NCBI RefSeq assembly: GCF_004010195.1
Contig: NC_057718.1
Location: 10,887,903 to 10,907,902 of the forward strand
Length of the DNA stretch: 20,000 nt
Direction: 5' to 3'
DNA from: Chiloscyllium plagiosum
Taxonomy: Eukaryota
Part shown: one piece after another, positions 4,320 to 20,000 of the stretch
Layout: each line of letters begins with the position of its first letter
Position numbering within the stretch: position 1 is the first letter of the stretch
Notes under the pieces: model-generated
Database searches by the model: none
What the model saw: the letters and a program-made list of their open reading frames with translations, nothing else
What the model was told of the DNA's origin: nothing
Program-made: the position numbers and the translations under genes

Positions 4320-4400
4320 CTCTCCCTCCCTCCCTCCCTCACCTCCCTCCTCCCTCCCTCACCCCCTTCCTCCCTCCCTCCCTCCCTCACCCCCTTCCCT
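4320..4400. repeat. (CCCT/CCTC)n pyrimidine-rich microsatellite
   Basis: About 80 nt of almost pure C/T with CCCT units and occasional CAC, directly visible just upstream of the exon 3 acceptor. Confidence 0.95.
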
Positions 4401-4421
4401 GTCATTCCCCACCACACTTAG

Positions 4422-5580: not shown

Positions 5581-5769
5581 CTAGATGTAAACCATAAATA
5601 TTTATGAACCAATATATTCCAGTGTCCAACACAGAATTACTCAGGGATACATTTTCTGGAGTATAAATATTTGTGTTAAATATTTATACTCTGGAAATGT
5701 ATTCTTGAGTAATTTCTGCATGTTGGATGTTGGCATATTGATTTGAAGTTAATGTATAACCACATCTAG
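5581..5769. repeat. Long imperfect inverted repeat (~90-nt arms), possibly a MITE-like remnant or structured intronic RNA
   Basis: Perfect 14-bp core GAGTATAAATATTT (5659-5672) / AAATATTTATACTC (5678-5691) around a 5-nt loop. Pairing continues to 5619/5733, then CAATAT/ATATTG, with termini CTAGATGT (5581-5588) / ACATCTAG (5762-5769). Confidence 0.9.
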
Positions 5770-6814: not shown

Positions 6815-9190
6815 TGGTAAAGCCAGCATTCATTGCCCGTTCTTCTGGAGAAGATCTTGGTGAGCTGCTTTCTTGAGGCTCTGTAGTGCTCAGCATGTGG
6901 CGACTTCCAGATTGCTGCTGGGCAGGGAGTTCCATAATTTTGATGTAGCAACCCAAGATCTTATGTGACTTGGAGGTGTTGATGACCCAAGGCATCTGCT
7001 GCTCTTGTCCTTTTAGAGATCATGGATGTGGAACCTGTGGTCAGAGAGGCCTTGAAGAATTAGTGCTATGCATAGAGTAGATGGCACACATTGACAGCAA
7101 TTTGTATTAGTGTGAAGGGAGTGAATGTCGAAAGTTTTGGATCGAGGTCTGCGTCAAGGACAGACTATTTTGAGCTTGAGTGTTAGTGGAGCTGGACTCA
7201 TCCAGGCAAGTGGAGAGCATTCTATGACATTCCTAACTTCTGTCTTGTAGATGGTGGACATGCACTGCAGCAGAATTCCTAACCTTTGACCTGCTCTTGT
7301 AGCTACAATATCTATGTGACTTGTCTGATGGATGGTAACACTCAGGATTTTGAAAATGTGAATTTCAGTGATGGTAATGCTGTTGAGTTTCAAGAGGATA
7401 GTTATATTCTTCTTTATTGGAAATGATCAGTGCCTGATACTTGTGTGGTGCATGTACTTGCCACGTAACAGCTCAGTGGATAATGTCCAGGTTGTCCAGG
7501 TGTATGGGATGTTGTGCAATGAGAGAACACTCCATTCTGATCTTCTGATGGAGGGAAGATCACTGTTGAAGCAGCTGAAGATTATTGGACCGAGGAAACT
7601 ACCTTGAGGAACACCTGCAGAGGTACCTTTGGGCTGAGATGATTGGCCTCCAGTAACCAGAACCATTTTAATTTTGCTCGGTATGACTCCAAATAGCAGA
7701 GAGTTTTCCCTCTGATTTCATTTGAATTGAGTTTTGCTCAGGTATCCTTTCTGCAACCTCAATGTCAAAGGCTTATTACTTTCACCTCTTCACTAGGTCA
7801 GTTCTTATGTCCCTGTTTGGACCAAGGCTGTAATGAGGTCAGGAACTGAGTGGCCCTGGGGCATCCCAAGCTACTATGTTCAGTTCATTCCTTTGTAAAT
7901 GCCATATGGTAACACTGACAAATGAACCTTTCTATCACTTTATTGATGATCAAGAGTAGAATGCTAGAACCATTGCACAGGACAATGTGGACAGGACTTA
8001 ACTATGTAATTTTCCACATTGCTGGATAGATGTCAGTATTGTAACTGTACTGGAACAACTTATCCAGGATACAGTTAATTCTGGAGCACACCTTCAGTGC
8101 TGTTGCTGGAATGTTGTCAGGCCCAGACTTTTGCAGGATTTGGTGTCTTCAGCGGTTTCTTGATATCATGTGGAGCGAACAGAATAAGTTGAAGACTGAC
8201 ATCTGTGATGCTGGGGATCTGTGGGGAATACAGAGATTGCCACCTTTGGCTGAAGATAGATACAAATGCTTGAGCCTTGGCTTTTGCACTAACGTGCTTT
8301 GTTCCTCCATCTTTGGGGATGAAGTATTTGTGGGACGCTGCCTCTAGTTATTTGCTGAACTGTCCACCACAATTCCTGATTGGACTTAGCAGGACCACAT
8401 TGTTTAGCTCTGATCCGTTGCTCGTGGGATTGCTAGCCCTGCCTGTTGCATGCTGCTTCCGCTACTTAACATGCAAGTAGTCATGTGATGCCCACTGCTT
8501 AACATGCAAGTAGTCATGTCATGCAGCTTCACCGGGTGCCTTATTTTTGTGGATGCTTGGTGCTGCTCCAGGCACATCCCCCTGCACTTTTCATCAAGCT
8601 AGAGTTGGTCTCCTGGCTTGATGATACTAATTAATTCTAGATATCCAGATTTTGGTTGTTAGATATGTTTGAAGTTGGTCCCATTTAGCATATGTTTGAC
8701 CTGCTACTGAGAGAGTTTGGGAGGGTCTGGAATAAATGTTGAGTATACCAGGATAACTCCTCCCTGATTGAATACCACTGTGCTAACATATCTGGGTGGA
8801 TCTTGTCCTGCAAGTGGAACAGGACATAGTCAGAAATGGTGATGGTGGTGTTTGGGATAATAGCTGTGTAGTATGATTCTGTAAATATAACAGTTGGGCT
8901 GTTGTTTGACAAGTCCAAGGGACAGCTGTCCCAATTTTGACACAACTCTCTGCGTATTGGTAATGATGATTTTGCGGGATTGATGGGCTGTGTCTAACAT
9001 TGTAGTTTCCAATCCCAGGTGGTTTGTGCAGTTTCATTCCTTTGTTCAGATTTTGTAGTTATTCATTGCAATCGCATGGCTCGCTAAGTCATTTCAGAGA
9101 TAAGTCAACCACATTGTTATGGACCCGGAGTCTCAAATGATCAGACTCTGTAAGGATATCAGATTGACTTCCCTGAAGAATAATAGATTT
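6815..9190 (-). mobile_element. Degraded, internally deleted LINE (CR1/L2-group-like) with endonuclease and RT remnants
   Basis: RT motif GVPQGSFLGPIIFSCFNSDLPS (ORF 7427-7666 -). APE-endonuclease-like remnants KLGQLSLGLVKQQP and VIFTESY...TTITISDYVLFHLQD (8685-9012 -, split across frames). C-terminal remnant TIYKTEVRNVIECSPLAWMS (7154-7393 -). Many frameshifts. Confidence 0.8.
8459..8524. repeat. 33-bp tandem duplication within the LINE remnant
   Basis: CTTAACATGCAAGTAGTCATGT at 8465-8486 and 8498-8519 (period 33). Confidence 0.85.
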
Positions 9191-10979: not shown

Positions 10980-12120
10980 ATTATGGAGGGTTATTCAGCA
11001 TATTTTCAGTTCATCCATTCAAAAAAGAACCTCTCTCACCACTGTGATAATATTCAATAAGTTCTGAAATGTTTTCAGAATTTTGCCTGCACTAATAAAC
11101 TGTGCACTCCATTCAGTGTACTGGTTGATGAGTGTAGAGAACATCATGGTATTAATCCTAAACTTGTCTCCTATTCATACACCTATCTTCCATTTTAATT
11201 CTCATTTAATTTCTCATTCACATATTAATTCTCTCCATTTTCCAAACACTTGCCCTGCTTTATGCGCATCTCTTGAGATCATGCCTCAGGCAGGAATGTG
11301 TTTTCAAGGCTAAAAGCTTTGATTTTACTTGTAGCTCAGCCCTTTGTAACTTCCAGATCATGCATGTTCCCCTTGTATAGCAATGATCAGACTGTCCACA
11401 GTATATAAAGTGTAGTCAGCTGAATATATTAGGTAGTTTGATCATGGCTTTGTCTGTCTGATATAGTAATATTTTGGCTATGCAGTTCACTATTTTCTTG
11501 CCTTGTTGATTGGTGTTCTGCATTTAATTGGGCATGAAAATGTGTTGCTGGAAAAGCGCAGCAGGTCAGGCAGCATCCAGGGAACAGGAGAATCGACGTT
11601 TCTGGCATAAGCCCTTCTTAATTGGGCATGTCTAGCATCAAGCTAACTAAGTTTTCTAGATGTAAAACTCCATCTGTAGTTATTTTTGCGCCATTTATGC
11701 AAATGTGGATCATCCATTTTTCTTTTCTCTATGTAGCATTAAATTGAATCGAGCATTGATTTCTAGCTATTGTATTTAACTCATTTGATTGAGTGTCTCC
11801 TTTAATTTCACCAACCCTTTCTAGTTTGATACCGCCCGAAAATATGACCAATGTGTAAAGGGGTTATGAGTGCAGGTTACAGATCTAGATGAGAAATTTA
11901 GTGACCCCAAATGCCAGTTCTTGGGGTCTACACATTTCCATATCATTTCACAAGTTTGTGCTCATTCCAATGATACAGCCAGTTTTTTTCAAAATTTTGT
12001 TCCCAAGATTTACAGTAAATTTATTGATGGCTTTTTAAAGGAAATTTTGACAAATGGGTTTTGAACGACTGGGTACGATACATCACTGTTCATTTCAATG
12101 TGAAGGTTGTTGGTCAGAGA
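10980..12120 (-). mobile_element. Old, heavily decayed CR1-type LINE (boundaries approximate), interrupted by a Penelope-like insert
   Basis: Minus-strand remnants resembling GVPQGSVLGP (~11900-11930), FADDTKL (~11820-11850) and the HLEYC-type C-terminal region (~11330-11520) occur in the expected order. Confidence 0.45.
11537..11617 (-). mobile_element. 81-bp Penelope-like terminal-repeat fragment with 13-bp flanking duplication
   Basis: Near-identical to 19103-19193 and to the corresponding part of 19735-19870. Flanked by TTAATTGGGCATG at 11524-11536 and 11618-11630. Confidence 0.8.
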
Positions 12121-14596: not shown

Positions 14597-15237
14597 GTAA
14601 GTGAAGCAAGCTCAGAGGCAACAATTTTGAATAATCAGTCTGTTACTGTAGCATTTCTTGATTACAGCCCATCCGCTAAATTCTGTCTTTGCTGCCCTAG
14701 TCTTTCCAATTCTTACCCTTTGTCCCTTTCAGGCCGTAAGCCACAAGAGATGTCAATCTGTGAGCATCATTCACCCATCAGAACTCACTCAGCTATAATT
14801 GTATGAGCCTGAATAGTAAGTATCAGCAGGCTCCTCTATGTGTGTGCTATCTGTTCTTGTCCTCAGCAATCTGATTTTCAGACTCCACACACTAGTAGAG
14901 GTCATCACAGCCCCATGGTGTCATTAAAAGTAATGCAGAGAAAGCTGCATTATGAATTCAAATGTTCTTAATATACTGTTATGAATCTGAGGTTGAAATA
15001 AGTATTTTGCTGATCAAGTTCATTTCTGTTTTGAGCACGCCAATATACCGCCTAAATTAGATGTGAAATGTCCTGTCCATGGTTGGTGACGTATGAGTTC
15101 TGACATAATGCATGTGCTGGCAGTCTCCCATCATTCTCCGTGGTTTGAACAGGATTTTTGCTATCTTACTTCAGGCACCAGTTTCTCCTCTCGTTATGTT
15201 GGAGTCAGATGTGAATTTGATGCCATGTATCTTTCAG

Positions 15238-15364
15238 ATAAATCTGAAGATGATGCAGACCGAGAGGCGCAGTTGCTAGAACGAAGATTAACTCTAACTG
15301 AGGAGAGGAATGCTGTCATGGTCCCGTCAGCAGGAAGTGGAATCCCAGGATCCCCAGCGAAATG
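15238..15364 (+). CDS. KIF13B: KIF13B exon 9 in window (127 nt, phase 1/2)
   Basis: ctttcAG|AT AAA ... AAA TG|gtttgt. Encodes (N)KSEDDADREAQLLERRLTLTEERNAVMVPSAGSGIPGSPAK(W). Confidence 0.93.
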
Positions 15365-15804
15365 GTTTGTCCTAAAATTGATTAACCAAAATAAAATTCT
15401 TCAGCTGAATGTTGTGAATTGCCATGGTGAGAGCCACTGATAGACTCAGAGATGTACAGCATGGAAGGAGCCATTGATTGAGTTATAGACATATACAGCA
15501 CAGAAACAGACTCTTCAGTCCAACTTGTTCATGCTGACCAGATATCCCAACCCAATCTAGTCCCACCTGCCAGCACCTGGCCCATATCCCTTCAAACCCT
15601 TCCTATTCATATATCCATGAAGATGCCTTTTAAGTGTTGCAATTGTACTAGACTTCACCACTTCCTCAGGCTGCTCATTCCATACATGTACCACCCTGTG
15701 CATGAAAAAGTTGCCCCTTAGGTCTTTTATATCTTTCCCCTCTCACCCTTAACCTATGCCCTCTAGTTTTGGACACCCTCAACCCAGGGAAGAGACTTTG
15801 TCTA

Positions 15805-16031
15805 CTTAGGTAAAAACAATGACTGCAGATGCTGGAAACCAGATTCTGGATTAGTGGTGCTGGAAGAGCACAGCAGTTCAGGCAGCATCCGAGGAGCAGT
15901 AAAATCGACGTTTCGGGCAAAAGCCCTTCATCATTTATTCCTGATGAAGGGCTTTTGCCCGAAACGTCGATTTTACTGCTCCTCGGATGTTCCCTGAACT
16001 GCTGTGCTCTTCCAGCACCACTAATCCAGAA
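15805..16031. mobile_element. Penelope-like inverted terminal-repeat pair (palindrome) nested in CR1
   Basis: Arms 15844-15933 and 15942-16031 are reverse complements at 88/90 positions with an 8-nt spacer. Host sequence ACTTTGTCTA is duplicated at 15795-15804 and 16031-16040. Confidence 0.85.
15937..15972 (+). ncRNA. Minimal type I hammerhead ribozyme motif (Penelope-associated), intact core, sense to KIF13B
   Basis: CTGATGA-A-GGGC-TTTT-GCCC-GAAA-CG-TC (15941-15968): conserved CUGANGA and GAAA boxes, 4-bp stem II, palindromic ACGU stem III, GUC cleavage triplet. Stem I is weak. Confidence 0.7.
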
Positions 16032-17167
16032 CTTTGTCTAAATACTCTATCCATGCCCCGAATGATTTTATAAACCTCTATAAGGTCACCCCTCAGCCTG
16101 TGATGCTCTTGGGAATACAGCCCCAGCCTATTCAAATTGTCCCTATAGCTCAAATCTGAGGAGCCACGTAGGATCAACTTCCCAATATGGTCCCGCAGTC
16201 AGGGCAGTCGATAGAAACTGCCGTAAAGACTACTTTTTGCCTTCCTGTTGTAAGTCCCAGGTTTCCTGCCTGTCTCAGCAGTGGTCTCTGACTTTGAAGA
16301 TAGCAGCCTTCCTTCATAGGAAAGCAGCCCCTGTATCTGACTGCTGAAAAATACAACCCTGTTTCCAGCTGTCTGTTGAAGCCAAAGTACCCAGCCCTGT
16401 TGTCACCTTCCTGTTGTGTCTGGGCAACTCTGGAACCTGGTGACTGAAAACCCAATTTCAAAATTGCAAGCATCTCTTCTTTGTTCCATTTTCAAATGTG
16501 GTGTTACTCCTGTTTCTGTTACTCCTCCACATGCAAATACACAAGCTGTATTTAAATATGCTATTTTTTTCCCTCCTGAATGGGCCTGTGCACTTCAATG
16601 CAGATAGGCAGCATCAGCGTGACAAAGTGAACAGTTGTGTAATGCTTGCAGATTCATCAGCAGTTAGAGGCCAGCATGTAATTAGATATTTAATGTTAAC
16701 TGAGATGAATAGTCAACTTTCTGCACCTTGCATTTTGAATTGCCAAATTCTGATGATCTAAAACATTAAAAGTAGAGAGGTTTTGTCTTCTGCTTCTTTA
16801 TAACTATCCAGTAATCCAAATTACATGATTTTGAATTGATGTCGTCAGTCACAGCATTGAGCAGTAATGGTTCCAAAATTCACCCTTAATAGTTGATCTA
16901 AAATGACTGTATCCCCAGGTTCATTTATTTTATTGTGACTTTAATAAATCAAATTCTGTTACACATTACACACAATCCAAGATGTTTTAGTTAACCAACA
17001 TCTTGCAAATCGCACTCCGCAATTGCGTGATTAGAGCTAGACTATTTGTTCGTAGTAGTTGAGTCAGGTTAAATTTTTATTGCAAGTTAGGCATTCAGTT
17101 TTTTCCATTTGAGATGGTAAATTGCTTATCCCTACAATATTTATTTGATTTTCGGAATTTCTTGTAG

Positions 17168-18357: not shown

Positions 18358-18663
18358 GGGCGGCACGGTGGCACAGTGGTTAGCACTGCTGCCTCACAGC
18401 GCCAGAGATCCGGGTTCAATTCCCACCTCAGGTGACTCTCTGTATGGAGTTTGCACATTCTCCCCGTGTCTGCGTGGGTTTCCTCCCACAGTCCAAAAAT
18501 GTGCAGGTTAGGTGAATTGGCCATGCTAAATTGCCCGTAGTGTTAGGTGAAGGGGTAAATGTAGGGGAATGGTTCTGGGTGGGTTGTGCTTCGGTGGGTT
18601 GGTGTGGGCTTGTTGGGCCGAAGGGACTGTTTCCACACTGTAAGTAATCTAATCTAATCTAAT
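18358..18663 (+). mobile_element. HE1-type (V-SINE superfamily) elasmobranch SINE, near full length
   Basis: tRNA head gggcggcacggtggcacagtggttagc...gggttcaattccc, V-domain-like tggagtttgcacattctccccgtgtctgcgtgggtttcctcc, CR1-like tail gggccgaagggactgtttccacactgta and (TAATC)n terminus. Confidence 0.88.
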
Positions 18664-18811
18664 TATCCATATGTATGTACAGACCACAGCAGAGGAATGC
18701 CATTAGCTAGGAAAAAGTTTTTAAAACATTTTTTAACAGTGCCAATAGATGTTATGCTTGTATTTAGTGCTGTTGCTATTTTCTTCTCTTTCCTTGCTCA
18801 CTCACCATTAG

Positions 18812-18936
18812 CTGATGACTTCAGCTCCCGTGAAGATCTGGATGGGCCAGAACCTGGTGCACTGGATGCCAGCCTTACTGATGAAGATGATGATGACATT
18901 TTTGAACTTCAGATTGCAAAGCATCACGAGCCAGAG
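18812..18936 (+). CDS. KIF13B: KIF13B exon 11 in window (125 nt, phase 1/0); gene continues beyond the window
   Basis: ccattAG|CT GAT ... GAG|gtgatt. Encodes (A)DDFSSREDLDGPEPGALDASLTDEDDDDIFELQIAKHHEPE. Confidence 0.92.
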
Positions 18937-19102
18937 GTGATTGAACGCTCCATAGTTATATATCTTCAGATTAAATGAACTTCTAATAATGAAAAGCAAG
19001 GTAGAACATTGGACAGCGAGGACTGAATAAAAGTGCATTTGAGGAAGGAAAGGGGTTTTATAAGCTTTCCTTGAAACCAGGATTGTAGGGAGAATAAAAA
19101 TG

Positions 19103-19197
19103 GGCTGGAAATGTGTTGCTGGAAAGGCGCAGCAGGTCAGGCAGCATCCAGGGAACAGGAGAATCGACGTTTCGGGCATAAGCCCTTCTTCAGGAAT
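19103..19197 (-). mobile_element. Short Penelope-like terminal-repeat insertion with 11-bp flanking duplication
   Basis: Same unit as 11537-11617. GAATAAAAATG at 19092-19102 and 19194-19204; the second copy overlaps the element's own GGAAT end. Confidence 0.8.
19162..19197 (-). ncRNA. Minimal hammerhead ribozyme motif, intact core, antisense to KIF13B
   Basis: Minus strand reads attc-CTGAAGA-A-GGGC-TTAT-GCCC-GAAA-CG-TC-gatt (core 19166-19193). Confidence 0.68.
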
Positions 19198-19489
19198 AAA
19201 AATGTCAAGTTAGAAAGGGGCAGCAATCCCAACTTTTAATAATGGGTAGAATTTTGTTTTCATTTTTCAAGGTAAGATTACAGCAAAGAAGTGAGGATCA
19301 TTTATCATTCATGCACTGAGGTTTACAGCAGGTGCAGAATATTTATCTGTTCGAATACGATAAATCCTAAACTGAATCGGGCCAAGCATGAAACAGTTTT
19401 GAAATTCAAATATTTAAGAAGTTAAAGTTCTTGTATCCCACTGCTAGAGCAAAACTGTGAATGGAGTTGGAAGTGAATTTGTAATGACA

Positions 19490-19734: not shown

Positions 19735-20000
19735 AAAGGAGAAAGTAAGGTCTGCAGATGCTGGAGATCAGAGCTGAAAATGTGTTGCTGAAAAAGCGCA
19801 GTAGGTCAGGCAGCATCCAGGGAACAGGAGAATCGGCGTTTCGGGCATAAGCCCTTCTTCAGGAATGAGTAAAGTTTGTCCAGCAGGCTAATATAAAAGG
19901 TAGGGAGGAGGGACTTGGGGGAGGGGCGTAGGAAATGTGATAGGTGGAAAGAGGTCAAGGTGAGGGTGATAGGTCAGACTGGGGTGGGGGCGGAGAGGTC
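19735..20000 (-). mobile_element. Penelope-like element 3' end/terminal repeat, running off the window
   Basis: Longest copy of the repeat (ggagaaagtaaggtctgcagatgctggagatcagagctgaaaatgtg...cttcttcaggaatgag), followed by purine-rich internal sequence. Hammerhead-like core at 19835-19862 with GUC changed to GCC. No RT or GIY-YIG ORF is visible in the window, so the class is inferred from the repeat. Confidence 0.7.

Follow-up and report, generated by a model that had tools for sequence, protein, structure and literature searches.

Canonical Penelope-like elements (PLEs) are defined by a reverse transcriptase with a C-terminal GIY-YIG endonuclease. The insertions of such endonuclease-bearing elements were reportedly treated by Evgen'ev and Arkhipova in 2005. 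Twin priming of human L1 likewise involves priming by the second target strand and leaves an inverted segment within one target duplication. Here we compare with these systems a palindromic insert of 226 nucleotides (nt) at positions 15805-16030 of a 20,000-nt stretch of the Chiloscyllium plagiosum genome (contig NC_057718.1), where it lies in an intron of KIF13B. The whole of this stretch is called the window, and positions are those of the window unless stated. An earlier note on this DNA had read the insert as a hammerhead ribozyme enclosed in a hairpin by its own antisense copy.

The closest descriptions come from four sources. In the sections consulted of Craig et al. 2021 (PMC8557442), PLEs are described as frequently 5'-truncated and accompanied by an adjacent inverted 5'-truncated copy, with a tail of 30-40 base pairs (bp) that is often present at one end only. 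Frangieh et al. 2024 (PMC11167929) worked with PAc (Poseidon of Anolis carolinensis) and showed that the purified protein of this PLE cleaves and extends both target strands, that it begins reverse transcription from two internal positions close to a stem-loop and that the sequence between the two forms the tail; the hammerhead of the element cleaved only when the element's protein was added, and mutating it left insertion unaffected. According to the parts consulted of Cervera & de la Pena 2014 (PMC4209133), a single minimal hammerhead of metazoan PLEs shows no detectable self-cleavage in vitro and dimers have low activity; paired motifs on opposite strands, 100-700 bp apart, are also noted there. 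Finally, Penelope inverted repeats yield small interfering RNAs in transformed flies, as stated in the portion consulted of Evgen'ev 2013 (PMC3681739).

Our analysis indicates that the palindrome is very probably the result of one PLE insertion event into an old fragment of a long interspersed nuclear element (LINE) in the KIF13B intron, which left two opposed 5'-truncated copies. The best protein matches to the exon-sized frame in the window are shark KIF13B proteins (91-93% identity), and residues 315 to 1386 of whale-shark KIF13B align colinearly across 60 kb around the window with the gene on the + strand, which bears out the earlier placement of the insert in an intron of this gene and the assignment of its strand. 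The nearest upstream exon match is at 15234-15407 (+; whale-shark residues 1121-1178), with good similarity only to about 15365. The host of the insertion is an older LINE fragment on the minus strand (15557-16198) with reading-frame remnants on both sides of the insert (open reading frame (ORF) pieces at 15557-15742 and 15935-16198). There is a direct repeat of 10 bp, ACTTTGTCTA, at 15795-15804 and again at 16031-16040. With the left flank as query, a search of the C. plagiosum assembly (3.56 Gb, the genome used throughout) yielded 4,533 first-look candidates. Forty of these were scored (89-93% identity) and 19 were read. All 19 LINE paralogues are uninterrupted and have a single ACTTTGTCTA followed by TTTATCCTATCC..., that is, an empty site. 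The 226 nt at 15805-16030 are therefore an insertion, and the flanking 10-bp repeat is its true target duplication, as the earlier note had supposed.

The arms were located with a repeat finder at 15844-15933 and 15942-16031 (90 nt each, 88/90 or 98% complementary, with 8 nt between them), in agreement with the coordinates that had been proposed. The left copy is antisense to KIF13B. Its outermost 3' part is a PLE tail of 39 nt (15805-15843, -), which matches the tail of an older copy at 19737-19772, and its arm (15844-15933, -) is a copy of the PLE 3' end that is 5'-truncated at U4 of the hammerhead core. The right copy is in gene sense and has no tail; its arm (15942-16030, +) is again a copy of the PLE 3' end and stops at the proximal end point ...AATCCAGA(A). 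The spacer TTTATTCC (15934-15941, +) is the 5' extension of this right copy and supplies C3 of the right hammerhead at 15941. Upstream of the hammerhead, longer copies of the family (L060, L063 and L066) read ...GCCTTTATTCCTGATGAAGGGC..., which matches the spacer. The left arm had been said to have lost C3, but there is no mutation here: the left copy simply ends at U4, and the base at the C3 position belongs, with the whole of TTTATTCC, to the right copy. At every paired position the left arm agrees with the majority letter of the family (Lonly = 0), and both arm mismatches (15990 and 15992) are changes private to the right arm (Ronly = 2). There is no microhomology at the arm junction, 15933/15934. 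When 15795-16040 was folded as RNA, one long hairpin was obtained with a minimum free energy of -185.3 kcal/mol, against a shuffle mean of -64.9 (z = -27; none of 200 shuffles was as stable).

The private sequence of each arm, the 39-nt tail on the left and the 8 nt TTTATTCC on the right, means that neither arm is a fold-back copy of the other and that two complementary DNAs (cDNAs) are required. This bears on the alternative that only one target strand was primed and that the single cDNA folded at the RNA 5' end and then copied itself. Such a snap-back would give arms that are identical at birth and joined by a short loop, much as we find here, with 2 differences in 90 that are both private to one arm. 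However, with a tail on one side only and a spacer that belongs to the other side only, neither arm is a pure copy of its partner. Additionally, a head-to-head copy elsewhere in the genome (L016, G000:C35538:707-1231) has arms of two subfamilies, GCAGCGAAAT facing the complement of GACAGGCAAAAT, which needs two templates; mixed arms of this kind are to be expected if two RNA molecules serve as templates. We therefore regard snap-back of a single cDNA as exceedingly unlikely, the least credible of the alternatives considered here.

Longer copies of the family identify the element. Two of them (L060 and L049) extend from the hammerhead region into the end of an ORF, and the hammerhead is placed about 150 nt downstream of this ORF end; a third copy, L058, is too truncated to reach the ORF. 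The 78-amino-acid ORF end of L060 has six protein matches, the best three of which are shark proteins with 65-68% identity (best match, 68% identity; pairwise E = 3e-28, database E = 1.5e-19). Four of the six matched proteins were scanned: GIY-YIG was found in all four (in one of them above the Pfam threshold) and RVT_1 in three. The ORF ends themselves, of 78 and 66 amino acids, matched no Pfam family. We assign the family to the PLEs on this indirect evidence, namely longer copies that continue into an ORF whose end shares 68% identity with shark proteins bearing RVT_1 and GIY-YIG. Together with the insertion signature, the protein matches support the earlier view of the insert as part of a PLE, inverted in layout and equipped with a minimal hammerhead. 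No description of this shark PLE family by name was found in the literature, in a search that was not exhaustive and that did not take in repeat libraries.

The architecture recurs. A search of the assembly with the 226-nt insert gave 1,073 first-look candidates, and 40 were scored. Every one of the 40 spans nearly the whole query at 89-97% identity and has the same head-to-head architecture. In the alignment of these copies the outer ends are common, the centres differ and the flanks are unrelated. Of these copies, 38 have a single tail and 2 have one at each end, in a sampling that demanded at least one tail. Flanking duplications have a median length of 15 bp (33 of 40 are at least 13 bp; range 6 to 20), compared with a longest match of 12 among 389 mismatched-flank controls; the three shortest results include both double-tailed copies, in which the matcher misplaced the right boundary. 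The long duplications relative to these controls and the empty site in all 19 LINE paralogues argue for one event per unit. Two independent nested insertions and a later palindromic duplication of a solo copy were also considered as origins of the window unit, and both are ruled out by the one duplication that flanks the whole unit.

We also took a sample that was neutral with respect to structure, using as query the tail and outer arm only (86 nt). This gave 301 candidates, of which 40 were scored and 30 fetched; 28 loci were kept after the window's own locus and one unplaced locus had been dropped. A partner was called on a reverse-complement match over 47 nt in which at most 6 substitutions were allowed. 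Ten of the 28 loci proved to be head-to-head units, whose arms span about 55 to about 370 nt. The rest comprise 11 solo 5'-truncated copies, four that run into stretches of N, and three long or complex copies with no partner within 1.6 kb. The 5' truncation points are scattered across the sampled copies. In a pattern count over the whole genome, opposed hammerhead stems at most 60 nt apart were found at 1,448 loci, and at none with a reversed control pattern.

The two arms of a copy share their variants. Where a left arm has a subfamily block such as GCAGTAAAAT, GACAGGCAAAAT or GCTTCGAAAT, the right arm of that copy has the exact complement opposite. Over 3,499 pair positions in the 40 copies there are 109 complementary changes in both arms, 138 changes in a single arm and 5 non-complementary double changes. 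In 1,000 shuffles that dealt the right arms among the copies, paired changes averaged 31.2 (sd 7.0) and never exceeded 58, compared with the 109 observed. Arm divergence is 4.1% within a copy and 8.6% between copies. Identical blocks are also present in long copies that extend into the body of the element, and the subfamilies are therefore those of the parent elements and not those of hairpin masters. Taken together, the paired subfamily variants and the arm-specific element sequence indicate that every insertion builds its second arm afresh, the likeliest cause being that reverse transcription is primed from both nicked target strands.

These data also bear on whether the 226-nt hairpin is a non-autonomous mobile unit (foldback, like a miniature inverted-repeat transposable element (MITE), or a hairpin-shaped short interspersed nuclear element) that is copied whole from hairpin masters. 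The 40 near-full-length copies at 89-97% identity, with fixed outer ends and target duplications, are what this would predict. On the other hand, the uniformity of the 40 copies stems from their selection, and the variant blocks are complementary on both arms and common to the long, ORF-reaching copies. The centre varies among copies, and the arms range from about 55 to 370 nt where the sampling leaves length free. The ends are asymmetric, with a one-sided tail, and flanking duplications of 6 to 20 bp are unlike those of DNA transposons. We consider propagation of the hairpin as a unit to be very unlikely. A MITE or foldback DNA transposon proper is ruled out by the same range of duplication lengths, by the asymmetry of the ends and by the fact that the arms are the 3' end of a retroelement.

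The anatomy of the unit, its target duplication and empty site, its PLE identity, the recurrent architecture and the co-inheritance of variants by the two arms are direct observations, and from these, together with in-vitro work on another PLE, we infer dual-strand priming and the joining of the two cDNAs. The endonuclease of the element would cut the target strands about 10 bp apart, and each of the freed 3' ends would then prime reverse transcription of the 3'-terminal part of the element RNA. Priming from the + strand at the distal start site would give the copy with the 39-nt tail, and priming from the - strand at the proximal start site would give the copy that ends ...AATCCAGA. Both cDNAs would halt just beyond the hammerhead, an extreme 5' truncation that leaves about 95 and about 129 nt. 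The cDNAs would be joined head to head, at a junction where no microhomology is evident, and each would template the other strand; fill-in of the staggered cuts would produce the 10-bp duplication.

Several points weigh against this account. The 40-copy alignment was picked by likeness to the whole palindrome and is biased towards this arm length and towards the presence of a tail. The sample of 28 loci and the pattern counts alone are free of this bias, and in the 28-locus sample the calls of solo copy or hairpin were made partly by eye. Dual priming would be carried over from the Anolis element, and at a junction free of microhomology (15933/15934) the manner in which the cDNAs join is supplied by the model. 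Paired variants could also be produced by hairpin master copies that are kept uniform by gene conversion between the arms.

The window unit shows the features of a PLE insertion: an adjacent inverted 5'-truncated copy, a one-sided tail of 39 nt, 5' truncation and a target duplication. As in the canonical insertions of PMC8557442, at least in the sections consulted, the copies are opposed with their 3' ends outward and both are heavily 5'-truncated; the family likewise has a one-sided tail, a terminal module that contains a hammerhead, flanking duplications of variable length and, in the longer copies, an ORF for reverse transcriptase and GIY-YIG upstream. Unlike those insertions, the window copies (about 95 and 129 nt) keep the terminal module only, so that the unit looks like a free-standing hairpin. 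Partial tandem copies, which give pseudo-LTRs, are a further trait of PLE insertions; several long copies of the shark family run into stretches of N, and none was read as a full-length unit. The resemblance to PAc (PMC11167929) extends to the two end points, which are about 39 nt apart near small stem-loops, to the tail, which is the sequence between the end points, and to the hammerhead, which is about 80-120 nt upstream of the end points. In PAc both target strands are usable, and the same use here would explain the opposed copies. PAc differs in host and family and was assayed in vitro, whereas the shark family is known from sequence alone; also, the hammerhead overlaps the ORF start in PAc and is about 150 nt downstream of the ORF end in the shark family. 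The rearranged Drosophila Penelope copies, as described in the portion consulted of PMC3681739, are also inverted PLE repeats that could form double-stranded RNA (dsRNA) when transcribed, but small RNAs were measured there, in transformed flies, and here the dsRNA is predicted. There is a further contrast with the twin priming of L1, which inverts a different, adjacent part of one RNA and gives no palindrome; in the shark unit the two cDNAs correspond to one and the same part of the element.

The hammerhead itself, CUGAUGA-A-GGGC-UUUU-GCCC-GAAA-CG-UC, was read at 15941-15968 (+), on the KIF13B sense strand, and its predicted cleavage is after the C at 15968. The earlier statement that the right arm has an intact hammerhead core on the transcribed strand therefore stands. 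The catalytic boxes CUGANGA and GAAA are present, as is H17 (CUGAUGA ... GAAA ... UC). By the features listed for metazoan PLEs in the parts consulted of PMC4209133, the motif would be a typical minimal PLE hammerhead: it has both boxes, the extra base (A after CUGAUGA, between positions 9 and 10.1), G10.1-C11.1 (in the stem GGGC/GCCC) and a palindromic ACGU at 15.1-16.1 with no loop 3. The palindromic ACGU without loop 3 implies dependence on a dimer. In contrast with the 6-8 bp of the families in those parts of PMC4209133, helix II is 4 bp long. Helix I, by inspection, reads G-C, A-U, U-U, U-A and then mismatches; with three Watson-Crick pairs around a U-U it is weak, and its positions show no covariation among the family copies. 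No Rfam hammerhead model matched the whole window at E <= 1 or a 281-nt segment at E <= 10. The genome contains 18,175 exact copies of the 28-nt motif (9,017 on one strand and 9,158 on the other) and none of a control. Among the 40 aligned hairpins, 18 of 40 tail-less arms and 8 of 40 tailed arms retain an intact strict motif, and 4 copies retain it in both arms, which is the expectation under neutral decay plus truncation. By analogy with the published systems, the window hammerhead would be of the minimal, dimer-dependent and protein-assisted type, without a role at the locus.

It had been proposed that the antisense arm sequesters the ribozyme and that this may be why a sense copy is tolerated. 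In its full form, this would mean that the antisense arm is retained to conceal a harmful sense ribozyme in the KIF13B pre-mRNA and that intronic sense copies survive mainly as hairpins. The physical part holds, in that the fold (-185.3 kcal/mol) buries the motif in about 90 bp of dsRNA, at the hairpin apex beside its complement, with which it would pair immediately on being transcribed. Two further observations favour concealment and count against the unit being a plain product of insertion. In the KIF13B sample of 60 kb, the two intact motifs in gene sense belong to head-to-head units, and the cores of the two sense-only copies are mutated, so that no copy there is at once solo, sense and intact; this sample holds five intact motifs only (2 sense and 3 antisense) and carries little weight. 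In addition, according to the part consulted of a preprint (10.64898/2026.07.22.740005), hammerhead-bearing retrozymes are depleted from Xenopus introns.

Against this, the hairpins form at insertion whatever the context (1,448 loci; 10 of the 28 sampled insertions), and in KIF13B one of the two intact sense motifs is separated from its partner by about 2.5 kb, too far for a tight enclosure. The motif decays freely within hairpins, as the counts of intact arms show, and three antisense copies in one window are no significant bias. The right arm alone folds no better than its shuffles (z = -1.3), and its best fold has an inactive shape in which UGAUG pairs with CGUCG. A single minimal hammerhead gave no detectable cleavage in the published assays consulted (parts of PMC4209133), and that of the Anolis PLE needs a protein (PMC11167929), so that no concealment would be needed. 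The proposed reason for tolerance is thus not supported, the head-to-head form being a mechanical product of insertion; the evolutionary part of the hypothesis is unnecessary and largely contradicted, and concealment by a retained antisense arm is highly improbable. The window unit is a dead non-coding fragment, a well preserved but ordinary product of PLE integration and no special ribozyme-hiding device.

There are other PLE copies in and around the window. A solo 5'-truncated copy of an older subfamily is at 11533-11626 (-); it is about 80% identical, has no CUGA box and is flanked by the target duplication ATGCCCAATTAA. A second solo copy of the older subfamily, at 19104-19200 (-), has an intact CUGAAGA-type motif antisense to the gene and the target duplication CATTTTTATTC. 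The third, at 19737-20000 (-), has a tail and forms the left arm of a larger head-to-head unit, about 2.85 kb long, that runs past the window end and is flanked as a whole by CTGAACTGAAAAGG. The opposite arm, in gene sense and without a tail, ends about 2.6 kb beyond this one, and its CUGAAGA-type motif, which is intact, is about 2.5 kb past the window end; the two arms are 95% alike over 162 readable nt, and the interior reads N. It had been stated that every other copy in the window is antisense to the gene. This is true of the three copies within the window, but the gene-sense partner of the last lies beyond it, so the all-antisense pattern is partly an edge effect. Over 60 kb of KIF13B there are ten insertion units of this family and the older subfamily: 4 head to head, 2 sense-only and 4 antisense-only.

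A solo truncated copy of the same PLE family (L059, G000:C9:74934303-74937388) is present in another, about 85% similar, copy of the host LINE. Its insertion point is identical to that in the window (after ...TTGTCTA; compared with window 15795-15805). The presence of L059 and the window copy at one LINE position suggests a preferred target site that is AT-rich just downstream.

About 225 nt 3' of the hairpin, at 16255-16365 (+), residues 1165-1201 of the whale-shark KIF13B model align with 62% identity. In the genome of the window this match has an in-frame stop, and it may be a repeat-derived or mispredicted exon of the whale-shark annotation. An exon-like open frame rich in acidic residues (...LTDEDDDDIFELQIAKHHEPEV) is present at 18658-18978 (+) and has no match to the whale-shark KIF13B model at E <= 1e-3. 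Elsewhere in the window there is a decayed LINE reverse-transcriptase fragment at 7150-8350 (-), with a weak RVT_1 match (E = 0.0036) at 7430-7717 and remnants of LINE ORF2 nearby. A 33-nt tandem duplication (91% identical) is at 8459-8524, and a CT-rich low-complexity tract (CTCC/CCCT) is at 4322-4410. At 5636-5713 (+) there is an AT-rich, near-perfect hairpin of about 75 nt with sub-threshold microRNA matches (mir-2012, 30.7 bits against a threshold of 90).

A microRNA gene was considered for the palindrome and is ruled out: the best Rfam match is mir-3158 with 51.6 bits against a threshold of 97, and the other Rfam matches have at most 37 bits against thresholds of at least 37 (at least 60 for microRNA families). 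Such sub-threshold microRNA matches are generic to any long hairpin.

If the region is transcribed, folding predicts that a dsRNA hairpin of about 90 bp would form, as a matter of physical certainty. A pre-mRNA hairpin of this length is, as the earlier note had it, a plausible substrate of ADAR or Dicer. Among the RNA runs searched, none contains half of the sequence words of this stretch, and four runs gave thousands of repeat-derived contigs of 90-99% likeness; none of these crosses the locus, and the runs are uninformative on its expression, editing or small RNAs. We raise, as a tentative and rather doubtful extension, that dual-strand priming has seeded well over 1,000 near-perfect hairpins, many of them intronic, and that these, when transcribed, might be a major source of long endogenous dsRNA that is edited by ADAR or diced into small RNAs and feeds back on the element, much as is reported of the inverted repeats of Penelope in flies, with the KIF13B hairpin as one of them.

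The locus itself is of little importance, and its striking shape is a consequence of the integration of the element. For annotators, PLE units of this kind mimic microRNA precursors and MITEs. The one-sided tail, the paired arm variants, the arm-private sequence and the one copy with arms of two subfamilies are all expected if both target strands prime. The family thus offers in-vivo evidence that fits two-strand priming from two start sites, as found in vitro for the lizard element.

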